64,000 nucleotides of DNA, taken from a phage. The translations under genes and the position numbers were made by a program. The number at the start of each line of letters is the position of its first letter. Positions within the stretch are counted from its first letter, which is position 1. The stretch lies in sequence record PX853108.1. One strand, written 5' to 3'. The notes under the pieces are model-generated. The model saw only the letters and a program-made list of their open reading frames with translations. It did no database searches and had not been told where the DNA came from. This document shows, in pieces, positions 4,367 to 46,834 of this stretch.

Positions 4367-4723
4367 TTAGTACCTCACAACATATACAGGTTTATTAAGC
4401 TTATTCATGATATCAATCATGTGCTTGGTTCCTTTGGATTTACCATCCCAGAAACATACAGCAGCATCTGCAAATTCACCCATTTCCTGGTTACGTATAT
4501 AACCAGCAGACTTTCTATGCTTATCCCAGTTAGCTGGGAAATTATGAATAGGCATTTTGTTATTAGCCCATAGGCTGTATGCAAGCATATCTGCTCCACG
4601 AGCCATACCACATACTAATTCAGGATTAGGGTCAATCTTACCTTTCTCCACTAAATCCATTAATACGGTAATCATTACTTGGATATTTACGAAGTCTCTG
4701 CCACCAGCTACTATTAGTTTCAT
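4367..4723 (-). CDS. SLOG/LOG-like (DUF2493-type) Rossmann-fold protein (assignment from memory of motif)
   Basis: 118 aa; MKLIVAGGRDF ... GMARGADMLAY ... FWDGKSKGTKHMI pattern typical of SLOG-superfamily small proteins. Confidence 0.45.
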   Translation of the reverse strand: MKLIVAGGRDFVNIQVMITVLMDLVEKGKIDPNPELVCGMARGADMLAYSLWANNKMPIHNFPANWDKHRKSAGYIRNQEMGEFADAAVCFWDGKSKGTKHMIDIMNKLNKPVYVVRY

Positions 4724-4941
4724 TTCTGATAACCTTCTATGAAGTTAGTACGACGAATAAGCTGAGTAGATGCCCTAACAGCCATCTGTTTGAACTCATC
4801 TTTGTGCTGATTTTCCAACACCTTAGCCCATTCTTCATGGTTCCGTCGTTTCTGTAGGATACGACTACACTTCTTATGATTAGCAACTCCTCTTCCTTTC
4901 TTACAGATTGGGCATATTCCATAATTAGTGCTGAACAACAT
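4720..4941 (-). CDS. zinc-finger-like small protein
   Basis: 73 aa; CPICKKG...HKKC motif. Confidence 0.4.
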   Translation of the reverse strand: MLFSTNYGICPICKKGRGVANHKKCSRILQKRRNHEEWAKVLENQHKDEFKQMAVRASTQLIRRTNFIEGYQK

Positions 4942-32223: not shown

Positions 32224-32283
32224 ACTGGCTTACTGTAGAGTAAGTTACCTATATACGATATAAGTTTGAATAGGAAACATGCT

Positions 32284-35200
32284 ATGTCAACATTTGACCG
32301 TCTGGCAGGTTTCGCAGACAGCATCACTAATGCTAAGCAAGTCGATGTCTCTACTGCAACCTCCCGGAAGCAAGCTGCACAGGGGCAAAGCCCTTTCCAA
32401 TTAACCCCAGATAATGCTTACAATCTACAGACTGGACGAGTAGGTAATCTTGGAATCGGTGCATACGAACCAGGTTCACTTCAGGCAGATTTCACTCAAG
32501 CCTCCCCCTTAGAAATCATTAATAAATATGGTAATGAGCAAGGTCTACAGATTCTTAATAGTCGAGCTAATGCTGCTGATGCTGTACGTCAGGACTTATC
32601 TAAACAACGTACTAACGCAGAAGCATTTGGCGATATCCTTTCTGGTGTTGGTCTTGGTGTTGCTAATACCCTTGGGGGCATTGCTGCTCTTGGCACAGGC
32701 TTGGTCAATGATAATGCCGGGGCATCCATTGCTTCCGGTCTTGACTGGTTGAATAAAGGTGTACACAACCTACAGTCCGATGCACTGAATGCTCGCCGTA
32801 ATGTAGTACAGAACCAGAACGTAATATCTGCACAGGAAAATGAGAAACTCTATAAGCAAGATATTGCTAAAGGAGAAAGCGAACTCGTTGCTTCCCTGTC
32901 TCGCATTGGTCGTGATGCTTACGATTCTGTTGCTAATACCCTGTCTAACGGCATGGCTGCTACTGATGGTATTGCTGAAGGTGTAGGTTCTCTGTTTACT
33001 GGTGGCCCATTAATCCGTGGTGTATCTGCACTCGGTAAGGTAATGGTAGGTGGAGATAAAGCTGTTAAGGGTATTACCTTAGCTGCTGAGTTAGGTTCAC
33101 GTCCTGCACGGATTGCACAGTCTGCTGGTCGTGTTGCTGCACCTGCTATAGCAATTGGTGGTATGGAAGCTGGTGGTGCATACCAACAGACTGCTAATGA
33201 AATTATGGAAATGCCATTCAGTGAACTGGCTGCTAAATCTCCAGTATACCAACAGCATATTAAAGATGGTTTATCTCCTGAAGAAGCACGTCGTCAGACT
33301 GCATCTGAAACAGGTATTACTGCTGCTGGCTTAACTGCTCCAGTTGCTGCTCTTACTGGTCCACTGGTATCCAAGTTTGAACTTAACCCACTCAAGGTAG
33401 GTTCACTGGCTGGTGCTGGTTCTAACATGCTGCGTGAGACTGTAGAAGAAGGTATCCAGTCTGGTACAAGTCAGTTCGCACAAAACACTGCAATCAAGGA
33501 AAATGTTGATGCATCTCGTGACATCCTCAAAGGTGTAGGCGAACAAACTGGTCTTGGTGCATTGTATGGCTTTGGTTCTGCTGGGGTTGCTCAAGCTCCT
33601 GGTGCAACTGTTAAGGCTGCTGGTGCTGCCGTTGGTCCTGCTGTACGTACTACCCTGGCTGGTGCTTCTTTGGCTGGTAAGGCACTAGCAAAAGTAGCCT
33701 CCCCTATTACTAACATCCTGGTTCAGCGTGGTGAAGAAGTAGCTAAACGTAACGAACAGGCATCTCCTGTATCTGATGCTACGGTTAATGCTGCTGCACA
33801 GGAAGCTACTGCTCAGGCAGAACAGGCCCAGGCAACCGTACAGGAAGCAGTAGATGCAATGGATATTTCTCCAGAAGAGAAAGCTGCTGCTACCCAGTAT
33901 GCTGCTGACTTAACTCAGGTAATGAAGTTTGATCCAGTAGAACTGGAACAAGCTAGCCCTACAGTCCGTGAAGCTGTTTCTGGTTCCACTAACCGTGTTG
34001 AAGCTATTCAGAAGATGGCTGACCTGGTTAATACTGCCGAAGACCCTAACGTTCAAATGGAAGCTGCAATCCAGATGTACGACAACATCATGTCTATGGA
34101 TAGCTTCATTAACCGTGACCCAGGTGCTCTGGCTAATCTGGAACAAGGCTCTCCTGCTGCTAATATCGTTGACCAATTCTCTGGCCTGATGGCTAACGTT
34201 CAGAATACACCGAAAGTACTTCGTGCATTCCGTGCTATTCATTCCATGATTCAGGAACAGGCAGAAGCAGGTAAACTGAAAGCTACTGAAGAAGCTAACC
34301 AAGCCCAGGCAAACAATATTGCCATGGCTGCTGATATGTCTCCAGAAGTACTGGATGCAGATTCAGTAAACATGGTTCTGAAACATGCAAGTGAAGGTAA
34401 GATTACACTGGGGAATCGTCAGCGTGCTGCCCTGCAATCTGCTGCTGCCTTGTTACAGGGTGCACGAGAATTTGACGCTAAAGCAGAAGAACTAGGCTTA
34501 CGTCCTCAAGACATTGTTAGTAAACAGATTAAAACCGACGAGTCTCGTTCTAATGAAGGCCAGTACTCTGCGTTGCAACATGCTAAACGCATTCGTTCTG
34601 CGTACAACTCTGGTAACTTCGATTTGGCTTCCGCTTATCTCGACGACTTTATGAAGTTCGCCCAGCACATGCAGAATAAGGTCGGAGCGTTGAATGAGCA
34701 TCTGATTTCTGGGAATGCGGATAAGAATAAGTCTGTCCATTATCAGGCTCTTACTCCCTCCCGTGAATGGGTACGTAGTCGTACTGGCCTCGGTGTCAAT
34801 CCGTATGATACCAAGTCTGTTAAGTTTGCCCAGCAAGTAGGACTGGAAGCCAAGACCGTAGCTGATATTGCTAACGCACTTGCTACGGCTTACCCGGAGC
34901 TTAATGTTTCTCATGTTAAGGTTACCCCATTGGATTCCCGTTTGGACAAGCCTGCTGCCCAAGTAGTTAAAGAGTTCCGTCAGGGCAATCTTGATGCTGC
35001 TCAATCCCAACAGACCAATGAACCAGTGAATCAGGTTGATGAATCTCCTGTTACAAAACAGGAACCAGTTACCCCTACTGTACAGACTAAACCCTCTGTT
35101 AGTGAAGCTGTTAAAACAGAACCTACTATTAAAGAGTCTAAACCACAGACTGCAAAAGAACCTGAGAACCAGTCTGAAAAACAGGATGCTGTTGAACAGC

Positions 35201-38200
35201 CTACTGAATCTGAAAGGGATGCTTATGTAAAAGAGAATACTATTTCTCAAGAAACTCTTAATAAGTATGGTGACCGTAGGGAGAGTCCTTGGCTATTTGC
35301 TGATGGTACTGTTGTTGGTTCCAATGGTGACCATATCAGCCTGTCTGATGTATTTGGTCATGATGGTTATCGTGACATGTCTTTGGATACTGGTGCTGTA
35401 CGTTCTACTTTCTACAAAGGAAGTGAGCAACCGTTCGTATCCCTGCAATTGTTTGATAATCAGAAGCTAACTGCTGAACAATTCAATACTGTTCAATCAT
35501 TCGTAGAAGCAAACAATGCACTGATTCAGATTGGTGTAGATACATCTGGGCTTAATACCAATAACGTTGAGAAAGAAGAAGTATCACTGGCTCAACTGAA
35601 AGCAGACTATACCGTTGGTGGTAAACCCCTATCTCAAATGGAAACAGTGTTCCCTGTCTATAACAATGAAAAGACATCGAACCAGTTCCTTAAAGCATTT
35701 TCTCTACCAGAGGAGCCTAAGTCTCGTACCATTGGTTCTGAATCTCCTTTGACTGATGTTAAGAAAGCACTGTCTTCTGCTGCCCGCTTTGAAGCATTCA
35801 CTCAAAAAGAAAATAACGCACTCACGAGTGATGTGATTAAGCGTTACCAGGATTTGTTTGATTTTGGTGAAACTTTGAAGACCACTCTGTCTGACCGTCT
35901 GGCTAAGTTCCTTGCTAACAAGAACGTTGGTAAACGTTTTGCAGAAGGTACTGAGGCTAACCGTTGGGTGGGTGGTAAGTTACTTAACATCGTAGAGAAA
36001 GATGGTGATACCTTTAAGTTCAACGACCAGTTGTTAGAGACTGCTGTACTTGCAGGTTTGCAATGGCGACTAACTGCTACACAGAATGCTGCTGTTAAAG
36101 ACATGAAAGACGTAGCTGCTATTACTGGTGTGGAAGCATCTCTGCTACCAGAAGGTATCCTCGCAGAGTTTGAGAATGCTCAAACCTTAGTAGAGGCTAC
36201 TAACTCACTGGCTCAGAAGATTGAATCCTATTGGGGGCTTAATCGTAATGCTGATGCACCATTGGGTTATACCAAGGGTATCCCAATGGCAATGGCTACA
36301 GAGATTCTGTCTTCTCTCATTGAGATGGGTGAAGTTAAAGAGTCCATGCTGGATGTGTCTGAGATTGACCCAGAATCTAATAAGACCGTTGGTTTGTATA
36401 CCATTGAGAAGTTAGATGATAACGATGCCATTAATAAATTCCCTACTGCTATTGAGGAAGCAGTCCTTCTAGAACCAGTAGAGAAATTGTACTTGGGTGA
36501 TGATATTCCTTCAGTGGCTCAAACTCAGTTACGTAACCCGGCTGTCAAGAATACCCCGGAACAGAAAGCTGCTCTTAAAGCAGAACAGGCTACTGAGTTC
36601 CGTGTACACATGCCCATGGTTAACTTCTATGAAGCATTGGGTCGTGACAACATTCTGGAATTGATGGGTGCTGGTGCTCTTAACCCAGAATTGCTGAATG
36701 TGAATACTGCTAAATCTCTGGAAGGTAAAAACCTGTCCGTGTCTATGGCATATGATTCCTTGTTTGGTGTTATCAATCAGATTAAGGAACAGGAGAATGG
36801 ACTGGATACACCTATTCACTATGGTTACAACATGACCCGTGTAGGTCGTATGCAGATGCTTGGTAAAAATAACCCACAATCCAGTAAGCTGGTCCGTGAA
36901 GCAATCTTACCAACCTTCTCTACCATCGACTTGAGCAATGAAAACAGTCAAACGTTCTCCGATTTCCAGTTAGGTCTGGCTCAGGCATTGGGCATCAAAG
37001 TTCATAAAATGTCTCGCGAAGTTATGTCAGATGAACTGACTAAAGCTCTGGAAGGTAAACTGAAACCTGCCGTTGATATGATGGTTGAGTTTGATAAGTC
37101 TGGACACTTACCTACTGATGCAGTGGATATTCTGAAGACCTCTTTGGGTAATGATAAATCATTTGTAGCTCTCATGGCTCTTATGGAATATGCCCGTTAC
37201 CTTAACAGTGATGACCGTGCCAACTTTAATACCCCACTGTACGTTGAAGCTGATGGTGTAACCAACGGACCAATCAACGCAATGGTATTAATGACTGGTG
37301 GTAAGTTCACCCCAGACTGGATTAAGAATACTGCTAAAGGTGGCTTGTTCTTCGGTAAAGCTGGCAAGACTATGAACGAGCATCATTCGCACGAGGACAG
37401 TGTTGACCTGTATGAAGCATCCACTAATGGTCTGCAACAAGCACTGAATGAATTACGTAGTACTTACCGTAACAACGTTCCTGTTATGAACCAGATGAAC
37501 CATCTCCAGAAATTAATGGACCTGTTCATTAAAGATTTCAATCTTAAGGAAGATGGTACTCTGGACCTGAAACGTGGTATTGCGAAAAACCCACTGACCA
37601 TTACCATTTATGGTTCTGGTGCTCGTGGTATTGCTGGCAAGATGGTTAGTGCAATTACTGATACCATCTACGAACGCTTCAGTGACGTTCTACAAGCTCG
37701 TGCTGCTGACCCTAGCATTTCACCAGCTATGGCTATGTTTGGTAAGGAGGCTGCGTCTGAGGCTGATGCTCAGGCTATGCTGGATACTTTCCTTACTTCT
37801 ATGGAAGCATTGACTGGCAATGTTCCGGTTATGCGTAAAGGTGAGTTGTCTATTCAGCAGGTAGAAGGTGCTCTGACCGGTAAATTAGACCCTCAGAAGT
37901 TTACTGTATCAGGCAATGCTCTGAAGAATTTACAAGAGAACATGCTTCACTTGTTCGTTGAACCAATGCGTACTGGTATCCGAAATACTGTTGGCGAAGG
38001 TTTGATGTACTCTACTGAGAATTTGCAGAAGGCTACCCAGATTCAGTCTCTGGTATTGCAGGATATGTTCCAACAGGCAGTACAGGCTAAGCTGGCAGAA
38101 AAAGAAAAAGACCCAACATGGAAGAAAGGTGATTTCTTAACACAGAAAGAACTGAATGAAATCCAGAATAGCTTAGCTCCACTGGCTCCAATGATTGAGA

Positions 38201-41200
38201 CTGGTTCACAGACTTTCTACATTGCTGGTAGTGAGAATACTGATGTTGCTAACCAAGTATTGGCTACTAACTTAGATGACCGTATGCGTGTACCAATGAG
38301 CATCTATGCTCCTTCACAGGCAGGCGTTGCAGGTATTCCGTTTATGACCATCGGTACTGGTGATGGCATGATGATGCAGACCCTTTCTACTATGAAAGGT
38401 GCTCCGAAGAATACCCTGAAAATCTTTGATGGTATGAACATTGGTATCAACGATATCACCGATGCAAGCCGTAAAGCTAATGAGGCTGTATATACTTCCT
38501 GGCAGGGTAACCCTATCAAGAATGTTTATGATTCCTTTGCTAAGTTCATGAAGAATGTAGACTTCAGTAAACTGTCTGATGAAACCAAACAGGCTATCGC
38601 TAAGTCTGCTCTGGAGTATGACCAGCGTGAGGGTGCTACCGATGACCTGTTACGTGTTGGTGCTGAACAGATTGAACGTAACCTGCGTAACATTGCTTTG
38701 GGTGTAGATATTCGTCACAAGGTAATGGACCAGGTACAGGTCACCGTTGACCAGATGGCTGCTGTTGGTGCTCCTTACGTGAACAACGGTAAAATCTCTC
38801 TGGAAGGTCTGACTGTAGACCAGCAAGTAGCTAAGCTGAACGAACTGTTTGATGCTGAATTAAACAAACGTCGTGATGCAGTTCGTGCTGCTAAAGCAGA
38901 ACCAGTGAAAGAAGTACCGGCTATGGAGAAGGTTGGTCGTGTACTGAAGTCTGGTGTACGTCTGTTGTCTAATACTGCCATTACTAAGCTGGCTAAAGAG
39001 ATGTCTCCTGAACAGCAAGCAGTATTGAAAGAAATACAGAAATCCCTCGCTGCTAAAGACTATAAGGTTGTTTACGGTACACCTGCTCAACTGGATGCTT
39101 ATGCTATTGAGAAGAATATTACTCGCCCAGCACCGGAAGATATTGAAGCTGCTGAAGCTGGTAATGCATATGGCTGGACTAACTTTGAAGATAAGACCAT
39201 CTACTTAGTTACCCCTTCCTTAGAGACTCTGGTTCATGAATTGGTACATGCTACTACTTTTGAATCTGTACTGGCTCATTATGAGGGTACTCCTAATGAA
39301 GCAGTACAGAATATTGAAGACCTGATGAACCAGTTCCTTACTCTGGATGTTAAGGATGAATCTCCGGCTGTACGTGAAGCGTATGCCGATGCACTGAATA
39401 CCATTAATGGTCATTTGTCTAATGGCTTCATTGAACCCGCAATGGCTAAAGCTGCTGCATTGAACGAGTACATGGCTTGGGGTTTAACCAACCGTGAACT
39501 GATTAGCAAGCAGAAGAAAACTACTGCACTTAAAACTATGGTTCAGGCTGTATATGAAGCAATCAAACGTCTGGTATTTGGACGTAAGAAAGCTCCAGCT
39601 AATGCAGATGATATGTTCTCTGGCTTACTGTTTAACTCTGCTGTAGTAATGCGTGGGCAAGCTCCTACTGCTGCTGTAGCTAAAGACACTACTCTGTTCC
39701 ATAACAAAGCATATGGTGACAATACTCGTCTGGAAGAGTTAGGTAAGACCTTTGATAAACTGATTACTGACTACATTGGTTCAGAACCAGTACAGCAAGT
39801 AATTCGTAAAGGTAAATTCTCTGATGCAGTAGTGAATGCAACTAAAGTAACCCGTGATGTTCAGGCTCATGGCTTCACCATGAATATGCAGGAACAACGC
39901 CTCTTCACTAACATTGTTGCTGCATTGGCTACTGAGGCTGCTATTAACCCTGCTGCTCTTGCTCGTGCACAGGAATACTACACGCATGTTACTAAAAACC
40001 TGACTGTTGAAGCATTTATGGCTGACCCTGATAGTACTAACCCTGCTGACCGTTATTATGCACAGCAGAAGTTCGATACTATCATGGGTGCTAACAACAT
40101 TGAGTTTGATGCACAAGGTCGTTCTTCCTTACTGCCTACCTTTGTTGGTCTGGCTATGGTAAGTGAAGAAGTACGTAAGGTTCTGGCTGATATTCCTGTT
40201 ATGAAAGCAGATAAGAAATCAGGCAATACTGTTGACGCAATGCTGACTAACATTGGTACTGCTGCAATGGCTAGCCTGAATGCTCGTGTAGCAGGTGATA
40301 CTAAAGCCACTAACGTACAGGAAGGTATGGATGCACTGGCTCAGACAATCATGCAGACCAGTCTTAATGCAGAATCCTTCTATGATTCCGTTGCTACCCC
40401 TACTGGTAATGCTATCGACCGTGCTAACCAGTATCTGGTGGATTCTATTGATGTACTGTCTACCCGTGCTTTGGAAGGTGCTCGTGAAGTTGCAGCTAAT
40501 ACCAAGAACCCGTTGGTTAAAGGTGCTGCTCATGCTGCACAATTGGTAGCTGCTATTGCTACAGAGAAGAATGGTGCAATCGTAGCCGAAGGTGTTATGG
40601 CTGCAATGAACCAGGGTAAAGTATGGCAACCCTTCCATGACCTGGTTAATGACATAATCGGACGTACTAAGAGCAATGCTTCTGTATACGATTTGATTAA
40701 AGCAGTTCGTGCACAGGTACAGGCTGACCGTCAACAGTTCCGTGAACACTTGCCTACCACTATCGCATCCAAGTTCAGCCGTAAGCTGACTAATGATGAG
40801 TGGAAAGCAATGCATACAGGTATGGGTAAAACTGACTTAGCTGTTCTGCGTGACACTATGTCTCTGGATGAAATCCGTGACCTGCTGTCTGACCAAAAGA
40901 TTGTTGACCGTGAGGTTAATAAACTGGAAGCAGATTTGCAGAAACAAGCAGGACGTAACTGGCCTCTGATTAGTCGTAAATCTAAGCAACTGGCTCAGTA
41001 CATGATTAATGGTACGGTTGGTAATAACCTGTTGCGTAATGCTACTGCAATTTCTCGTTTACTGGGTGAACGTAAGACTACACGTTCTGTTGTAGATGTA
41101 GCTCAACTGGATAAACTCATTACCCTGTATGCACTGGAAGCAATGAATAAAACTGACCGTGAGATGTTATCTTCACTGGCTCAGACAGAAATTGAAGGTA

Positions 41201-43038
41201 TGGACTTTGCTACTTCTTACCTGGTTGGTCAGCGTAAAGATGAAATGGCTAAAGCTAAGTCTGATAGTCGTGCAACCCTGAACCAGTACAAAGGGTATAT
41301 TCCTGGTGAGAACAAACAGGGTGTTAACCTGATTGTTGCTGAAGATAGTCAGTTTGCTGATTTGATTGAGAAATCCTATGTACGACTGGGTACTTATCAG
41401 GGTAGCTCTGCTAATCGTGGTCCAGCACGTAGTTACTACTTTGCACCGGTACAGGCACAGGCTCCATTCTCACAAGGTATCCTACAGAACGTTCGCAATA
41501 CTGCTGGTGGCGTAGACCTTGGCACAGGCTTTACGATGGGAACCATGGTAGCTGGTCGTATTACTGACAAGCCTTCTGTAGACCGTATCACTAAAGCACT
41601 GGCTCGTGGTGAACGCGGTAATGAACCACTGCTGCCTGTATATGATGCCAATGGTAATGTGGTTGCTTACGAGCAATCCATTGACCCTAACATGCTGAAG
41701 CACATCGAAGGTGAGAACCATCTTGCTCGTGCAATTGGTGTATGGCGTGGTCGTCAGGTGGAAGAAGCTAAGGCTCAGCGTTTCAACGATATGCTGATTG
41801 AGAACCTGCATAGCATGTACGAGAACGACATTAAGATGTCTGCTTCTAATAAGTCCCAGTACGTTAACCTTCTTGGTTCGAAACTGGACCCAGTAACTGC
41901 CGATGCTCTTAAACTGATGAACAGTGAAACTCGTCAGAAAGCAGAAAGTCTGTTTGGACCGGGTGAGTTGTGGGTACGTCGTGACATGCTCAACGATGCA
42001 CTGGGTTATCGTGCAGCTTCTGTTGGTGATGCCTGGTCTGGTAATTCTCGTTGGTCCCCAGAAACACTAGATACCTTCAAGAAAGCTATGCTGGGTGTCT
42101 TTGGAAACCGTGCTTATAAGTACGTAATGGGTGGTGAGAATCTGGTTCAAAACTTAGTTAAAGAAGCCAAGACTCTGATTGTAGTTAAGTCAGTAGTCGT
42201 ACCTGCTGTTAACTTCCTGGCTAACCTTTACCAGATGGTTGCTCGTGGTGTACCTGTTAAGAACATTGCTAAGAGCATCCCACAGAAAACTGCTGAGATT
42301 AATCAGTATCTGAAATCTCGCCTGCGTCAGGTAGATGCAGAAGCAGAATTACGTGCAGCTACTAACCCTAACCAGATTCGTAAGCTGAAGGCTGAGATTC
42401 AGTCCATCACGGATAGCCATAAGCGTTTGAGTATCTGGCCTCTGTTAGAAGCTGGTGAGTTTTCTTCAATTGCAGATGCTGGTATTGGACGTGATGACAT
42501 CCTGATTACTGAAGGTAAACTTCACGAATACATGGAAAAGCTGGCTGATAAGTTGCCTAAGTCTGTACGTAATGCTGGTCGTTATGCACTTATCACTAAG
42601 GATACTGCTCTCTTCCAGGGTATCCAGAAGACGGTTGAGTACTCTGACTTTATTGCTAAAGCAATCATCTATGATGAACTGACTCAGCGTAAAGGTAAGA
42701 CCCGAGAAGAAGCACTCGGACGTGTAACGGAAGAGTTCATTAACTATGACCGTTTGCCTGGCCGTTTCCGTGGGTATATGGAAAGTGTTGGTCTGATGTG
42801 GTTCTACAACTTTAAGATTCGTTCTGCAAAAGTTGCAGTGTCCATGATTCGTAACAACCCAGTACATGCTGCTATGGCTATGTTGGCTCCAACTCCTACC
42901 ATGTTTGGTAACGTTGGTCTGCCTATTAAGGACAACATCTTTAGTATTGCTGCACAGGGCAACCTCGGTTACTCCTTCGGATTCGGTATGGGCTTACGTG
43001 CCCATACCCTGAACCCGTGGCTCAACCTCACTAACTAA
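32284..43038 (+). CDS. giant virion-encapsidated RNA polymerase (vRNAP)
   Basis: 3584 aa from ATG 32284 (RBS AGGAAA; track start 32266); central T7-like motifs A EADGVTNGPINAM (near 37245), B LKRGIAKNPLTITIYGSG (near 37560), C KIFDGMNIGI (near 38417). Confidence 0.85.
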   Translation: MSTFDRLAGFADSITNAKQVDVSTATSRKQAAQGQSPFQLTPDNAYNLQTGRVGNLGIGAYEPGSLQADFTQASPLEIINKYGNEQGLQILNSRANAADAVRQDLSKQRTNAEAFGDILSGVGLGVANTLGGIAALGTGLVNDNAGASIASGLDWLNKGVHNLQSDALNARRNVVQNQNVISAQENEKLYKQDIAKGESELVASLSRIGRDAYDSVANTLSNGMAATDGIAEGVGSLFTGGPLIRGVSALGKVMVGGDKAVKGITLAAELGSRPARIAQSAGRVAAPAIAIGGMEAGGAYQQTANEIMEMPFSELAAKSPVYQQHIKDGLSPEEARRQTASETGITAAGLTAPVAALTGPLVSKFELNPLKVGSLAGAGSNMLRETVEEGIQSGTSQFAQNTAIKENVDASRDILKGVGEQTGLGALYGFGSAGVAQAPGATVKAAGAAVGPAVRTTLAGASLAGKALAKVASPITNILVQRGEEVAKRNEQASPVSDATVNAAAQEATAQAEQAQATVQEAVDAMDISPEEKAAATQYAADLTQVMKFDPVELEQASPTVREAVSGSTNRVEAIQKMADLVNTAEDPNVQMEAAIQMYDNIMSMDSFINRDPGALANLEQGSPAANIVDQFSGLMANVQNTPKVLRAFRAIHSMIQEQAEAGKLKATEEANQAQANNIAMAADMSPEVLDADSVNMVLKHASEGKITLGNRQRAALQSAAALLQGAREFDAKAEELGLRPQDIVSKQIKTDESRSNEGQYSALQHAKRIRSAYNSGNFDLASAYLDDFMKFAQHMQNKVGALNEHLISGNADKNKSVHYQALTPSREWVRSRTGLGVNPYDTKSVKFAQQVGLEAKTVADIANALATAYPELNVSHVKVTPLDSRLDKPAAQVVKEFRQGNLDAAQSQQTNEPVNQVDESPVTKQEPVTPTVQTKPSVSEAVKTEPTIKESKPQTAKEPENQSEKQDAVEQPTESERDAYVKENTISQETLNKYGDRRESPWLFADGTVVGSNGDHISLSDVFGHDGYRDMSLDTGAVRSTFYKGSEQPFVSLQLFDNQKLTAEQFNTVQSFVEANNALIQIGVDTSGLNTNNVEKEEVSLAQLKADYTVGGKPLSQMETVFPVYNNEKTSNQFLKAFSLPEEPKSRTIGSESPLTDVKKALSSAARFEAFTQKENNALTSDVIKRYQDLFDFGETLKTTLSDRLAKFLANKNVGKRFAEGTEANRWVGGKLLNIVEKDGDTFKFNDQLLETAVLAGLQWRLTATQNAAVKDMKDVAAITGVEASLLPEGILAEFENAQTLVEATNSLAQKIESYWGLNRNADAPLGYTKGIPMAMATEILSSLIEMGEVKESMLDVSEIDPESNKTVGLYTIEKLDDNDAINKFPTAIEEAVLLEPVEKLYLGDDIPSVAQTQLRNPAVKNTPEQKAALKAEQATEFRVHMPMVNFYEALGRDNILELMGAGALNPELLNVNTAKSLEGKNLSVSMAYDSLFGVINQIKEQENGLDTPIHYGYNMTRVGRMQMLGKNNPQSSKLVREAILPTFSTIDLSNENSQTFSDFQLGLAQALGIKVHKMSREVMSDELTKALEGKLKPAVDMMVEFDKSGHLPTDAVDILKTSLGNDKSFVALMALMEYARYLNSDDRANFNTPLYVEADGVTNGPINAMVLMTGGKFTPDWIKNTAKGGLFFGKAGKTMNEHHSHEDSVDLYEASTNGLQQALNELRSTYRNNVPVMNQMNHLQKLMDLFIKDFNLKEDGTLDLKRGIAKNPLTITIYGSGARGIAGKMVSAITDTIYERFSDVLQARAADPSISPAMAMFGKEAASEADAQAMLDTFLTSMEALTGNVPVMRKGELSIQQVEGALTGKLDPQKFTVSGNALKNLQENMLHLFVEPMRTGIRNTVGEGLMYSTENLQKATQIQSLVLQDMFQQAVQAKLAEKEKDPTWKKGDFLTQKELNEIQNSLAPLAPMIETGSQTFYIAGSENTDVANQVLATNLDDRMRVPMSIYAPSQAGVAGIPFMTIGTGDGMMMQTLSTMKGAPKNTLKIFDGMNIGINDITDASRKANEAVYTSWQGNPIKNVYDSFAKFMKNVDFSKLSDETKQAIAKSALEYDQREGATDDLLRVGAEQIERNLRNIALGVDIRHKVMDQVQVTVDQMAAVGAPYVNNGKISLEGLTVDQQVAKLNELFDAELNKRRDAVRAAKAEPVKEVPAMEKVGRVLKSGVRLLSNTAITKLAKEMSPEQQAVLKEIQKSLAAKDYKVVYGTPAQLDAYAIEKNITRPAPEDIEAAEAGNAYGWTNFEDKTIYLVTPSLETLVHELVHATTFESVLAHYEGTPNEAVQNIEDLMNQFLTLDVKDESPAVREAYADALNTINGHLSNGFIEPAMAKAAALNEYMAWGLTNRELISKQKKTTALKTMVQAVYEAIKRLVFGRKKAPANADDMFSGLLFNSAVVMRGQAPTAAVAKDTTLFHNKAYGDNTRLEELGKTFDKLITDYIGSEPVQQVIRKGKFSDAVVNATKVTRDVQAHGFTMNMQEQRLFTNIVAALATEAAINPAALARAQEYYTHVTKNLTVEAFMADPDSTNPADRYYAQQKFDTIMGANNIEFDAQGRSSLLPTFVGLAMVSEEVRKVLADIPVMKADKKSGNTVDAMLTNIGTAAMASLNARVAGDTKATNVQEGMDALAQTIMQTSLNAESFYDSVATPTGNAIDRANQYLVDSIDVLSTRALEGAREVAANTKNPLVKGAAHAAQLVAAIATEKNGAIVAEGVMAAMNQGKVWQPFHDLVNDIIGRTKSNASVYDLIKAVRAQVQADRQQFREHLPTTIASKFSRKLTNDEWKAMHTGMGKTDLAVLRDTMSLDEIRDLLSDQKIVDREVNKLEADLQKQAGRNWPLISRKSKQLAQYMINGTVGNNLLRNATAISRLLGERKTTRSVVDVAQLDKLITLYALEAMNKTDREMLSSLAQTEIEGMDFATSYLVGQRKDEMAKAKSDSRATLNQYKGYIPGENKQGVNLIVAEDSQFADLIEKSYVRLGTYQGSSANRGPARSYYFAPVQAQAPFSQGILQNVRNTAGGVDLGTGFTMGTMVAGRITDKPSVDRITKALARGERGNEPLLPVYDANGNVVAYEQSIDPNMLKHIEGENHLARAIGVWRGRQVEEAKAQRFNDMLIENLHSMYENDIKMSASNKSQYVNLLGSKLDPVTADALKLMNSETRQKAESLFGPGELWVRRDMLNDALGYRAASVGDAWSGNSRWSPETLDTFKKAMLGVFGNRAYKYVMGGENLVQNLVKEAKTLIVVKSVVVPAVNFLANLYQMVARGVPVKNIAKSIPQKTAEINQYLKSRLRQVDAEAELRAATNPNQIRKLKAEIQSITDSHKRLSIWPLLEAGEFSSIADAGIGRDDILITEGKLHEYMEKLADKLPKSVRNAGRYALITKDTALFQGIQKTVEYSDFIAKAIIYDELTQRKGKTREEALGRVTEEFINYDRLPGRFRGYMESVGLMWFYNFKIRSAKVAVSMIRNNPVHAAMAMLAPTPTMFGNVGLPIKDNIFSIAAQGNLGYSFGFGMGLRAHTLNPWLNLTN

Positions 43039-44308: not shown

Positions 44309-44565
44309 TAGTAGCTTTAACGCAGCTAACGAGGCTTGTATGAGTGCTAGGATTTGTAACTCCCAGCATATCCCCACCGTTTTAGCTGACGGCAAACAGA
44401 GATTGATAGTCTCAGAGGATACTTTACTCAGGCGAGTATTATAGTCTACTCATACTCACACTACCCTAACGGGTAGTATGTTTGCAATACCTAGAGTGCC
44501 GGACTGTCTCACCGGCATTGTCTTTAGAGTGCAATGCAATCAGGACTATGTTCTCTATTAATGAG

Positions 44566-44638
44566 TACCCACTACTGGATTTGAACCAGTGACCTTCCGA
44601 TTATTAGTCGGTTGCTTTCCCCGTCTAAGCTAAGTGGG
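44566..44638 (-). tRNA. tRNA-like gene, canonical cloverleaf; anticodon reads AAU by hand (Ile-type, unusual A34)
   Basis: Acceptor GCCCACT/AGTGGGT, D-arm GCTT...AAGC, anticodon arm ACCGA-CUAAUAA-UCGGA, T-arm ACTGG-TTCAAAT-CCAGT; folded by hand only. Confidence 0.55.
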
Positions 44639-44643
44639 CATAA

Positions 44644-44719
44644 ATGGTTACCCGGACAGGATTCGAACCTGTGTCCTAGTTGGTTTACTAGTGGGGCTTT
44701 ACCACTAAGCCTACCGGGT
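44644..44719 (-). tRNA. tRNA-like gene with encoded CCA and non-canonical anticodon loop (6 or 8 nt)
   Basis: Acceptor TACCCGG/CCGGGTA, D-arm GGCT...AGCC, T-arm ACAGG-TTCGAAT-CCTGT, then A-CCA; anticodon region CTAGT-AAACCA-ACTAG does not give a 7-nt loop. Confidence 0.45.
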
Positions 44720-45304
44720 ATTAATGAGTGAGTCACGCCAGACTTTAACTGGCTCCTTCTTCGCAATCCTTACATACCCCTACATAATTATTGCGTTAAG
44801 CTTTTTTGTTTAAGTTTAAGTGAAGGCGTTCTTGCTGACTCATAATAGGTTGGGCGTTTGACGAATGACTAGTTCGTTACTACCCGTTTGCCATAAGTAC
44901 CTGGCGACTTTGGTTTGAGGTGGGAGTCCGAGTCCTGTACAGCCTTACCGTTCACACATTGGCAGCGTATCTAGAATAGCACTTCCGGCAACTGGATTTA
45001 ACTGTTACACCTCAAATCTGGTAGGGGCGTCCAGAAGTCTCATCTGGTACTTACGCCGTCGTATGGTTACGACTTACCCCCATAATCTTTCTAATTCAGA
45101 GTAGCACTGCTCCACGTTTGGCCTTTGAACTCCGGGATGGATTAGTGCAATGCTACTTTGAATTAGTTGTCAGGGATTCCACCTGGCTCCATCTGTTTTT
45201 ATAGTCACTCAGATATCGTCTGGACTCTTTACTATGGGACTCACCGGCTACTTAGAGTAACTACGGTAAATATTATTCCACAGCTTACATTGATGTCGCA
45301 TCCC

Positions 45305-45388
45305 ATCAAAGAGTACACTAGCACTGGGCCACGCATAAGTGGGCATCGGCCTTCCTCCCACAGCTAATCTACTAATGTACTCATTGAT
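45305..45388. repeat. element R1: 84-bp unit bounded by 14-bp imperfect inverted repeats
   Basis: Left end ATCAAAGAGTACAC, right end ATGTACTCATTGAT (12/14 match as reverse complement); internal hairpins. Confidence 0.5.
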
Positions 45389-45560
45389 TGGCCCCCCGTT
45401 TCTAATACATGGACGGGGGAACTCCACGGTCGTTTGATAATCAGGACGACTCACTCCTGACTGACGCTTGGCTTATTAGGCTGCCATCAGAACAACATCA
45501 TCGTTTGCATTTATGTTATTGGTTCGTTTCTAAAAAACCGCATAATCGCTTACGAAAACT

Positions 45561-45661
45561 ATCAAAGAGTACACTAAGCACAGGTAGCTATCCTGCCGTC
45601 TTCTCCACCTACACCGGCTACAGTGTAAACCTCCGCACGTTAGCTTAATGTACTCATTGAT
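45561..45661. repeat. element R2: 101-bp unit with the same terminal inverted repeats as R1
   Basis: Identical 14-bp termini to R1, different internal sequence. Confidence 0.5.
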
Positions 45662-46393
45662 AGGATGTCATAATAGGGGAGGGAGGACGAGTCCCTCTTT
45701 ACCCTATGATTTAGTTTGCATGTAAGACCTAACAATTCGATGCTGTAGGTAGCTATGCTATCCGACATTTAACCCAGCCCATATAGGGGCTTATGTGATT
45801 AAAATGCTCAACATTGAGCGGTTAGTTGATAAGGGATCTGAAGCCTTATCCCAAAGATACTAACCTTTGGGATATAGCCTAAGATTCAGAAATGGCCCCT
45901 ATAGGGAGAGGCCATTGATTAACCCGAATGTTGCTTTACCTTTTATGTGATAACCCATTCTTAAAATAGTCTAGCTGACGGATGGGGGGCCACCCCTAGC
46001 GTCAGTGCCATACGGCAAAGATTAAGTTAAGAAAGGTTATGATAGGAGTTCCTATCTCAAAGGATTCTAACAGAACCCTTCACGATATTAACTACTCAAC
46101 GTGAAATTCTTTGATTCCCTCGACAGGTTCTACACCCCAGGAAAAAGCTAACTTTTCCATTTAATTTTGATTGAACCAATGGACTGGGGAGAGTATTCCA
46201 ATCCACTGGTTCGGTTGTTGTTGTTACTCTGGCGGCTTGTCACCACCGTTTTTATCACTGAGTTTCCAAAGTATAAGCACAGTGATGATAAATGCTATGT
46301 ATGGAGCCGACACGTCCAGAATCCTGATAAGCAATAGCATCAGAATTACGAACACTACCACAAATAGCAGCAGCTTCTGAGCCACCTACCAGA

Positions 46394-46834
46394 TTAACTA
46401 CGTTTAAGGCCAGCGAACAGTGAAGGCTTAGTAGCAGGTTTCTCTGCTGGTTCTTCAGCCTTAACTTCTTCCTGCACAACTTCTTCTTGTGCTTCTGGTT
46501 CAGTCACTGCTTCTTCTTTAGGTTCCGGCGTAGAACTCTCGTTCTGACCACCAGTAGAGGTCTGGGTTTCTTCTACCTTTACCTCTTCAACTACTTCTTC
46601 CGGCTCTGATTCTACTGGACGGTGTTTAGCTTCTTGTGGGTTCTTACGAGAACGACGAGTTTTCTTCTCTACTCCCACGGGTGGGGTATCTTCGTGAACC
46701 TCTTCGTTGATGCCTACGGAGGCTGTACCATCTGCATTGATGACAATATTAACGTCACCAGCAAGATTGATTTGATCATCGACATAAGCCTGTACAGCAG
46801 CTTCTACTTCGGACTGGTTCAAAATGATTTGCAT
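46394..46834 (-). CDS. acidic low-complexity protein
   Basis: 146 aa; E/V/K-rich C-terminal half. Confidence 0.45.
   Translation of the reverse strand: MQIILNQSEVEAAVQAYVDDQINLAGDVNIVINADGTASVGINEEVHEDTPPVGVEKKTRRSRKNPQEAKHRPVESEPEEVVEEVKVEETQTSTGGQNESSTPEPKEEAVTEPEAQEEVVQEEVKAEEPAEKPATKPSLFAGLKRS

Follow-up and report, generated by a model that had tools for sequence, protein, structure and literature searches.

Two probable structured-RNA genes with a shared closing helix and exchangeable interiors in the tRNA array of a Gamaleyavirus

Small structured RNAs encoded among phage tRNA genes are known from T4, whose tRNA gene cluster also encodes the small stable species 1 and species 2 RNAs (rnaC/rnaD). 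These RNAs are not tRNAs; they are matured together with the tRNAs of the cluster, and species 1 RNA is a substrate of RNase III in vitro. The stems recognised by RNase III in the leader-trailer of rRNA operons and in the early region of T7 are imperfect helices of around 20 bp that flank an RNA in a polycistronic transcript. At the DNA level, N4-like phages use hairpins as early promoters, and miniature inverted-repeat elements (MITEs) are short, carry no genes and have interiors that vary between their terminal inverted repeats. Bacterial Y RNAs (YrlA) are composed of a long terminal helix and a compact module, have tRNA-like links and are sometimes phage-encoded (PMC4201824). In the permuted, two-piece tmRNA genes the tRNA-like domain lies directly upstream (5') of the tag (PMC11915505).

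The window analysed here is a whole stretch of 64,000 nucleotides from a phage that belongs to Gamaleyavirus (G7C/N4-like, Schitoviridae). Its positions 44400-46400 are 95% identical to the Escherichia phages PD38, Bp4 and ECBP1. Downstream of the virion RNA polymerase ORF (3,590 aa; 32266-43038, + strand), no credible ORF was found in ~44400-46390, and the protein-coding ORFs flanking this region on both sides are read from the minus strand. Annotations of more than 170 related genomes leave this ~2-kb stretch empty or fill it with spurious small ORFs. It is a dense array of structured RNAs, and two tRNA genes and the two elements with shared ends, R1 and R2, are all located within it. The main features are as follows:

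44566-44639, minus strand: tRNA-Ile(AAU), found by ARAGORN and RF00005
44648-44720, minus strand: irregular tRNA gene (ARAGORN 'tRNA-???'; RF00005, 42 bits)
45091..45166, minus strand: R3, third long-stem cassette, with a 20-nt closing stem of different sequence (I3)
45305..45388, minus strand: R1, R1-type structured RNA gene, from sequence, covariance model and family covariation (5' arm 45388->45370; core 45369->45324; 3' arm 45323->45305)
45389..45560, minus strand: tmRNA-like tag module, from RF04321/RF01850 matches, tag variants and pseudoknot stems (5' hairpin region; GCA at 45508; tag frame 45508->45479; UAA UAA from 45478; pseudoknot a ~45460->45429; pseudoknot b ~45428->45393; then GCCA)
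45561..45661, minus strand: R2, second structured RNA gene, sharing the closing helix of R1, from folding and 7 homologues (5' arm 45661->45643; 63-nt two-hairpin interior 45642->45580; 3' arm 45579->45561)

Other parts of the array are also structured. The tRNA-like gene at 44648-44720 has an irregular anticodon arm and is kept in relatives, where it is labelled tRNA-OTHER. A stem-closed unit at ~44930-45030 (-), UUUGAGGUG...CGGAAGUGC...GCUGCCAAUGU...CACCUCAAA-CCA, carries a CCA end as in tRNA and has a homologue on an Ackermannviridae contig (L031). The motif UGUAGGGGUAUGUA(A/U)GG is found in the ncRNA arrays of Gamaleyavirus, the siphovirus Sa179lw and Pollockvirus (window ~44768-44786, minus strand; L104 ~1093-1112; L103 ~838-856). 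The ~400 nt upstream of R2 (~45670-46100, minus strand), to which the hairpin AGGGAGGAYUCGUCCCCUCCC belongs, are also present in the unrelated Kuravirus SU10 (L005 1240-1500; compared by eye), and there the block likewise precedes an R1-type unit. This common noncoding block suggests horizontal transfer. A sequence-only reading of the window had regarded elements such as R1 and R2 as unusual in a virulent phage, which is overstated, since the T4 tRNA cluster encodes small stable RNAs too.

The closing helix of R1 and R2

R1 (84 nt) and R2 (101 nt) are located exactly where the sequence-only reading had placed them. On the + strand both start with ATCAAAGAGTACAC(TA) and finish with (TA)ATGTACTCATTGAT, and the reported 12/14 match between the two ends as reverse complements was confirmed in both. 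The complementarity of the arms is longer than 14 nt and reaches 19-21 nt (I2, 21 nt at 90%; I4, 20 nt at 85%). When the arms are read as minus-strand RNA, one of the two apparent mismatches pairs as G:U, so that a single U·U mismatch is left. Each of the shared termini supplies one strand of an RNA closing helix made of 13 bp, the U·U mismatch and 5-7 bp. This helix, with about two turns of imperfect double-stranded RNA over 19-22 positions, has the geometry of an RNase III substrate. Compared with shuffled sequence, folding gave z = -3.7 for R1 and -3.5 for R2 on the minus strand, and weaker values on the plus strand. The interiors do differ and are hairpin-rich, as had been described: R2 was tried as a member of the R1 family and the covariance model of that family misses it even at E<=10.

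As regards the 14-mer itself, these four arm sites are the only ones within the 64-kb window when up to two mismatches are allowed, and at up to three mismatches the motif is at background (10 sites seen versus 8.4 expected genome-wide, chance level). Its supposed recurrence beside both tRNAs is weak, since the match at 44557-44570 has 3 mismatches and that at 44720-44733 is poorer still. The idea of the motif as a promoter found no support either, as no promoter- or terminator-like site coincides with the repeats. The leader AUCAAUG is locally enriched, with four minus-strand copies in 45288-45919 (632 nt), each before a structured unit (45655-45661 at the start of the R2 5' arm, 45382-45388 in R1, 45288-45294 and 45913-45919). 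The proposal of a small RNA gene family sharing processing ends was essentially right: the terminal helices are kept by compensatory substitutions, in an array on the tRNA strand.

R1-type RNAs, R2 and the exchange of interiors

The core of R1-type RNAs contains, in this order, GAUUAGC, one strand of stem S1, a loop with GGCCGAU, the second S1 strand with a variable bulge, and GCGUGGCCCAG. This invariant core measures 44-51 nt and S1 consists of 6+2 bp, the closing helix being free in sequence and length. The family alignment comprises 22 distinct sequences from at least 5 phage lineages, and 25 unpaired or loop nucleotides are invariant across lineages whose helices are completely different. 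In these 22 sequences, pairing reaches 95% in the closing helix, where 12 of the 13 pairs show compensatory double changes, and 97% in S1, where 5 of the 6 variable pairs show them. Not one of 500 shuffles scored as high in covariation, and slid partners were only 29-46% paired. Strand assignment in the family rests on context, because the G:U asymmetry between the strands (93.7% vs 92.3%) barely discriminates. In the structural model, GGCC:GGCC pairing within the core probably gives an H-type pseudoknot; the tetramers are invariant, so the pairing is without covariation.

The covariance model of the family finds one copy in the window, which is R1 (45303-45391, minus strand; 84.1 bits, E=4e-24), and exactly one match in each of 32 related loci. 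Beyond Gamaleyavirus, the R1 interior is found by blastn in Klebsiella phage KP8 (Kaypoctavirus), in ~25 Kuravirus genomes (SU10, phi G17 and ES17 among them) and in Erwinia phage Faunus (Chaseviridae). Further members, from Ackermannviridae (ascribed to KpS110, Menlow, maane, EP75 and Se-N) and from several unclassified phage contigs, came from pattern scans; about 60 of the 86 matches of the two-block pattern scan of IMG/VR were chance matches, and the set was re-filtered with a three-block pattern. In 185,579 bacterial genomes, one per species, there was a single match, which has no stem, and on these comparisons the R1 family is phage-restricted. Rfam 15 gave no covariance-model match to R1 or R2 at E<=10 (386-nt and 2.2-kb queries), and the R1-type motif is unannotated in the GenBank records matched by blastn. 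R1-type RNA is apparently an undescribed phage RNA family, no description having been found in the literature searched.

Related to this, known ribozymes and riboswitches (HDV-like, twister, pistol, hatchet, preQ1, fluoride, glutamine and others) were considered for R1 and R2 and discarded, as there is no Rfam match and the topology does not fit. YrlA RNAs (RF02553) have a core sequence unrelated to the one seen here, and the YrlA model matches neither R1 nor R2. The small RNAs of T4 resemble R1 and R2 as structured non-tRNAs among phage tRNA genes; however, no sequence relationship was detected, T4-like phages being absent from the R1 blastn matches, and the R1 core motif together with a shared and exchangeable closing helix has no described T4 counterpart.

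R1-type units are mostly found inside tRNA arrays, on the tRNA strand. On contig L060 the unit is flanked by tRNA-Asp and tRNA-Pro; the array there has seven tRNAs, all of them ending in CCA-AAU, and the 14-bp stem of the unit is followed by CCUAAU. In Ackermannviridae there are two paralogous R1 types, whose 13-14-bp stems are wholly different and are followed in most copies by ACCA-AAU/AAC, like the adjacent tRNAs. On contig L044 the core is tentatively placed on a 5-bp stem, roughly where the anticodon arm would be in a tRNA-like scaffold whose T arm is canonical. The stem of the Gamaleya/Kaypocta/Kura group is formed by 13 bp, a mismatch and 5-10 more pairs, and the mismatch is mostly U·U, A·C in SU10 and paired in PhAPEC5. 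Given these varied stems and tRNA-array settings, the R1-type core is, on comparative grounds, a module complete in itself, which is presented on a helix and handled as a tRNA gene would be. The stem lengths of 5, 11, 13, 14 and 19 bp (range 5 to 19+) do not agree with a 13-bp 'tRNA ruler' of the closing helix, which was also considered.

Homologues of R2 are present only in Gamaleyavirus and in the more distant Pollockvirus. Across 7 distinct homologous sequences, Pollockvirus included, 35/35 predicted pairs are kept. Besides those of the closing helix, they make up a junction stem of 3 bp, one hairpin of 9 bp and another of 5 bp whose loop has 7 nt. The 14 stem pairs that vary all still pair, 3 of them through double changes and 11 through changes on one side. 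Pairing is 100% in the minus-strand sense vs 86% on the complement, and this fixes the strand of R2 as minus.

The same arms enclose other interiors in related phages. In PBM-3, KP8, PhAPEC5 and contig L090 an R1-type interior is placed exactly at the R2 slot of the window, inside homologous arms, and phage nithesis has a third interior of ~110 nt within the same arms at this slot; all the interiors exchanged there abut the same downstream linker, (A/G)GUUUUCG... In Bp4, a tRNA-Cys-like gene occupies the R1 slot of the window, preceded by the same AAUCAAUG leader. Since the same arms hold different interiors at one slot, the closing stem is, judging from these phages, a scaffold that is conserved and keeps to one slot, directly 5' of the tag module, and what it encloses can be exchanged. 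The interiors were most likely exchanged by recombination within the conserved stem sequences, and the stems would be kept by selection as processing or stability signals.

Two further cassette types of these arrays keep the stem and exchange the interior: R3 and a widespread ACAACAGGUAAGAGCA.../...UGCUCUUUCCGUUGUG type. On contig L090 (~4700-4830) the stem of R3 surrounds a longer, different interior with a T-arm-like hairpin. Besides, lambdoid, P1-like, sipho- and N4-like phages have after the tag module a cassette class ACAACAGGUAAGAGCAYUG...CAGUGCUCUUUCCGUUGUG, whose interiors vary (L104 ~860-960, L105 ~865-970, L106 ~865-945, L062 ~2400-2500), and it is absent from the window.

The tmRNA-like tag module

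The tag module that separates R2 from R1 is unannotated and was missed by the sequence-only reading. The permuted tmRNA model (RF04321) gives 33.4 bits (E=3e-5 on a short query), which is below its gathering score of 47, and the beta-proteobacterial tmRNA model (RF01850) is matched over its positions 206-304; the matches to both models lie at 45428-45579 (minus strand). The tag reads ...CAUAAAU GCA AAC GAU GAU GUU GUU CUG AUG GCA GCC UAA UAA, which encodes ANDDVVLMAA, and its E. coli counterpart, with the frame read from ssrA, is ANDENYALAA. The frame begins at a resume-type GCA, lacks an in-frame start codon, has an in-frame UAG 8 codons upstream, and finishes with a degron end of the hydrophobic-Ala-Ala type; a resume codon and such an end are what is expected of a tmRNA tag. 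Seven variants were read, each of 10 residues and of the form AN[DE]..[AV]A: ANDDVVLMAA, ANDDVILMAA, ANEEAYLMVA, ANDSEMRMVA, ANEEMYLAVA, ANDDLMMVAA and ANDNTFLAVA. The codons of the last Ala-Ala differ among phages (GCA GCC, GCU GCU, GCG GCG) and are synonymous, which is a signature of selection on the tag peptide; the coding frame is evidently under purifying selection, as far as sequence comparison can tell. On the 3' side of the tag there are two H-type pseudoknots, whose stems show compensatory changes in 10 lineages; pseudoknots that flank the tag are likewise expected of a tmRNA. When a profile built from the phage modules is compared with E. coli ssrA, the alignment extends exactly from the resume codon to the stop, the match being weak (E=0.002). 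The +1 frame (AUG CAA ACG ...) was considered as a small ORF and rejected: it has 5-9 codons and is unconserved past MQT, whereas the tag frame always has 10.

Among phages, 372 records carry the module, and they span many families (N4-like, Ackermannviridae, P1-like, lambdoid HK633, several siphoviruses and others); within P1-like plasmids or prophages the module occurs in 657 of 5,426 complete E. coli genomes (12%). It does not correspond to a captured piece of host ssrA, given that blastn with the region misses ssrA in all 5,426 genomes. It shares with two-piece tmRNA (RF04321/RF01850) the resume-type GCA, the 10-codon AN(D/E)...A tag, the double stop and the downstream H-type pseudoknots, and a stem-closed R domain directly 5' of the tag takes the position of the tRNA-like domain in two-piece tmRNA genes (PMC11915505). 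Unlike two-piece tmRNA, the module has no T arm, no G3:U70 acceptor stem and no conserved CCA, and the interiors of R1 and R2 are not tRNA-like. No tRNA-like domain (acceptor stem with G3:U70, T arm, CCA end) was recognisable in the module, ARAGORN made no tmRNA call in any locus scanned, and the tmRNA covariance models matched the tag part only, below threshold (20-33 vs 47 bits). R1 and R2 were both inspected as the tRNA-like domain of a permuted tmRNA; they have neither a T arm nor an acceptor hairpin with CCA and G3:U70, and the hairpin order of R2 is the reverse of what a permuted gene requires.

In relatives there is also a ~120-nt tRNA-like unit, UUACCAGU...GGAGGUUCGAAUCCUUC ACUGGUAA CCA, whose acceptor stem covaries and whose CCA is encoded; it is present on L001, L002, L003, L004, L007, L062, L090 and L095 and absent from the window; no tRNA or tmRNA model detects it. 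Through GGACUAAG the unit had seemed to resemble the 3' half of tmRNA. The actual E. coli ssrA reads GACUGACUAAG, and a profile search of the unit against E. coli ssrA as a tmRNA 3' half was null.

The module and the R elements do not depend on each other for their occurrence. The module is found without R elements in Sa179lw, where it looks like it has its own promoter, and in RCS47, where it follows a terminator-like hairpin. R1-type units without the tag module are present in SU10, L060 and L045. In the Gamaleyaviruses AN24P2 and pSb-1 (L109, L110) the tag module and the R1 slot are cleanly missing and R2 remains, its 3' arm joining AGGUUGUACUAU.AAA and running into GUCCAGACGAUAUCUGAG; this clean absence indicates that the tag module is accessory. 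As module and R elements occur separately, the module is treated here as a separate neighbour and not as part of R1 or R2.

It is quite unlikely, in our estimation, that the R elements and the tag module together constitute a phage-borne, non-canonical trans-translation device related to two-piece tmRNA, in which the canonical alanine-accepting tRNA-like domain would be replaced by interchangeable structured domains (the R1-type pseudoknot, R2, others) or by a pseudoknotted 3' acceptor. The literature searched on tmRNA in N4-like phages, on 'tmRNA-like' phage RNAs and on structured RNAs of tRNA arrays yielded nothing specific.

Alternative readings, proposed mechanism and meaning

The explanation that we consider probable, on the comparative evidence, is that R1 and R2 are two small minus-strand structured-RNA genes of the Gamaleyavirus array, with a shared closing-helix scaffold and exchangeable interiors. 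They could instead be domains of one larger, tmRNA-sized RNA of ~370 nt, in which the 3' arm of R2 and the 5' arm of R1 close the tag module, and the 5' arm of R2 and the 3' arm of R1 pair outside. All four arms are mutually complementary (I1, I7), the minimum-energy fold of the whole 369 nt adopts this swapped pairing, the total size is tmRNA-like and the tag module needs some partner domain. However, the covariation favours local closure, and in most relatives (PBM-3, KP8, PhAPEC5, L090 and Pollock) there is only one R element by the module, so that local closure alone is possible. Moreover, R2 stands without the module in AN24P2 and pSb-1, R1-type units lie far from any tag module in SU10, L060 and L045, and the module lacks R elements in Sa179lw and RCS47; the single larger RNA is therefore unlikely. 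It is very unlikely that turnover of the array left R1 and R2 behind as decayed tRNA pseudogenes with no function of their own. Irregular and pseudo-tRNAs do exist in the array, the 3' hairpin of R2, with 5 bp and a 7-nt loop, lies directly against the 3' arm in the manner of a T arm, and the arms resemble the leader of the tRNA-Cys-like gene of relatives (AAUCAAUG). On the other hand, ARAGORN and RF00005 find only the two known tRNAs, and at E<=10 neither R1 nor R2 is matched. Besides, at least 5 phage lineages have the same invariant R1 core, with compensatory changes in its stems, and every substitution in the stems of R2 preserves pairing. Decay would not give such a pattern of conservation.

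Two other readings place the function of the repeats in the DNA. The sequence-only reading offered MITEs as one alternative, and R1 and R2, as MITEs or other mobile DNA inserted in the tRNA region, do have terminal inverted repeats (12/14, extending to 19-21 nt), although these behave as strands of an RNA helix. They also have different interiors within the same termini, and there is presence/absence and replacement polymorphism in close relatives, as with the tRNA-Cys-like gene in the R1 slot of Bp4. Against insertion, no target-site duplication is seen (GGCCA and GGGATG flank R1, ATCCT and AGTTTT flank R2), there is one copy per interior and no further arm site in the 64-kb window, and a transposase is absent; R1 and R2 match nothing in the 5,426 complete E. 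coli genomes and have no real match in the 185,579 bacterial species genomes, the single hit being stemless. The covarying helices with their G:U pairs, together with the 100% vs 86% pairing of R2, indicate selection on RNA, and the invariant core spans unrelated phage families. These comparisons largely refute a mobile origin of this kind, which is highly improbable. Extremely improbable is an action as cruciform, promoter or terminator, replication or packaging signal, or hairpin promoter of the N4-type virion RNA polymerase, even though hairpin early promoters are established in N4-like phages and the repeats are long enough for cruciform extrusion. N4 early-promoter hairpins have 5-7-bp stems and 3-nt loops, in contrast with the 19-bp stems and 46-63-nt interiors found here, and the repeats coincide with no promoter- or terminator-like site. 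Besides, the pairing of R2 relies on G:U pairs, which are A·C mismatches on the complementary strand, and the R1 core is kept in phages without virion RNA polymerase (Ackermannviridae, Faunus).

If R1 and R2 are structured-RNA genes, the array would be transcribed as a polycistronic minus-strand precursor, in which the long terminal helices would mark each unit for endonucleolytic excision and protect it. The ~20-bp helix of this phage may point to RNase III, as in the rRNA and T7 stems. In other lineages the same core is carried on 13-14-bp stems ended by ACCA-AAU or on a 5-bp stem, so that RNase III cannot be the general route; in relatives with 13-14-bp stems followed by ACCA-AAU, these features suggest tRNA processing of the RNase P/E type. 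Once released, the RNA, of about tRNA size, would use its invariant core to act in trans, the target probably being some component of tRNA or translation metabolism. The mature ends, the strand of expression and the responsible nucleases of R1 and R2 are all predicted.

In this way, a puzzling 'repeat' resolves into two concrete RNA genes. The tag frame, under purifying selection yet without a recognisable tRNA-like domain, raises the questions of how it is translated and what the phages gain from it; if the trans-translation device were real, many enterobacterial phages would add their own degradation tag (ANDDVVLMAA and its variants) on stalled ribosomes. The R1-type motif appears to bear the signature of a specific binding or catalytic RNA, with 25 invariant nucleotides and freely covarying helices in at least 5 unrelated phage groups. 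The conserved stem with exchangeable interiors constitutes a testable example of mosaic evolution among RNA genes.
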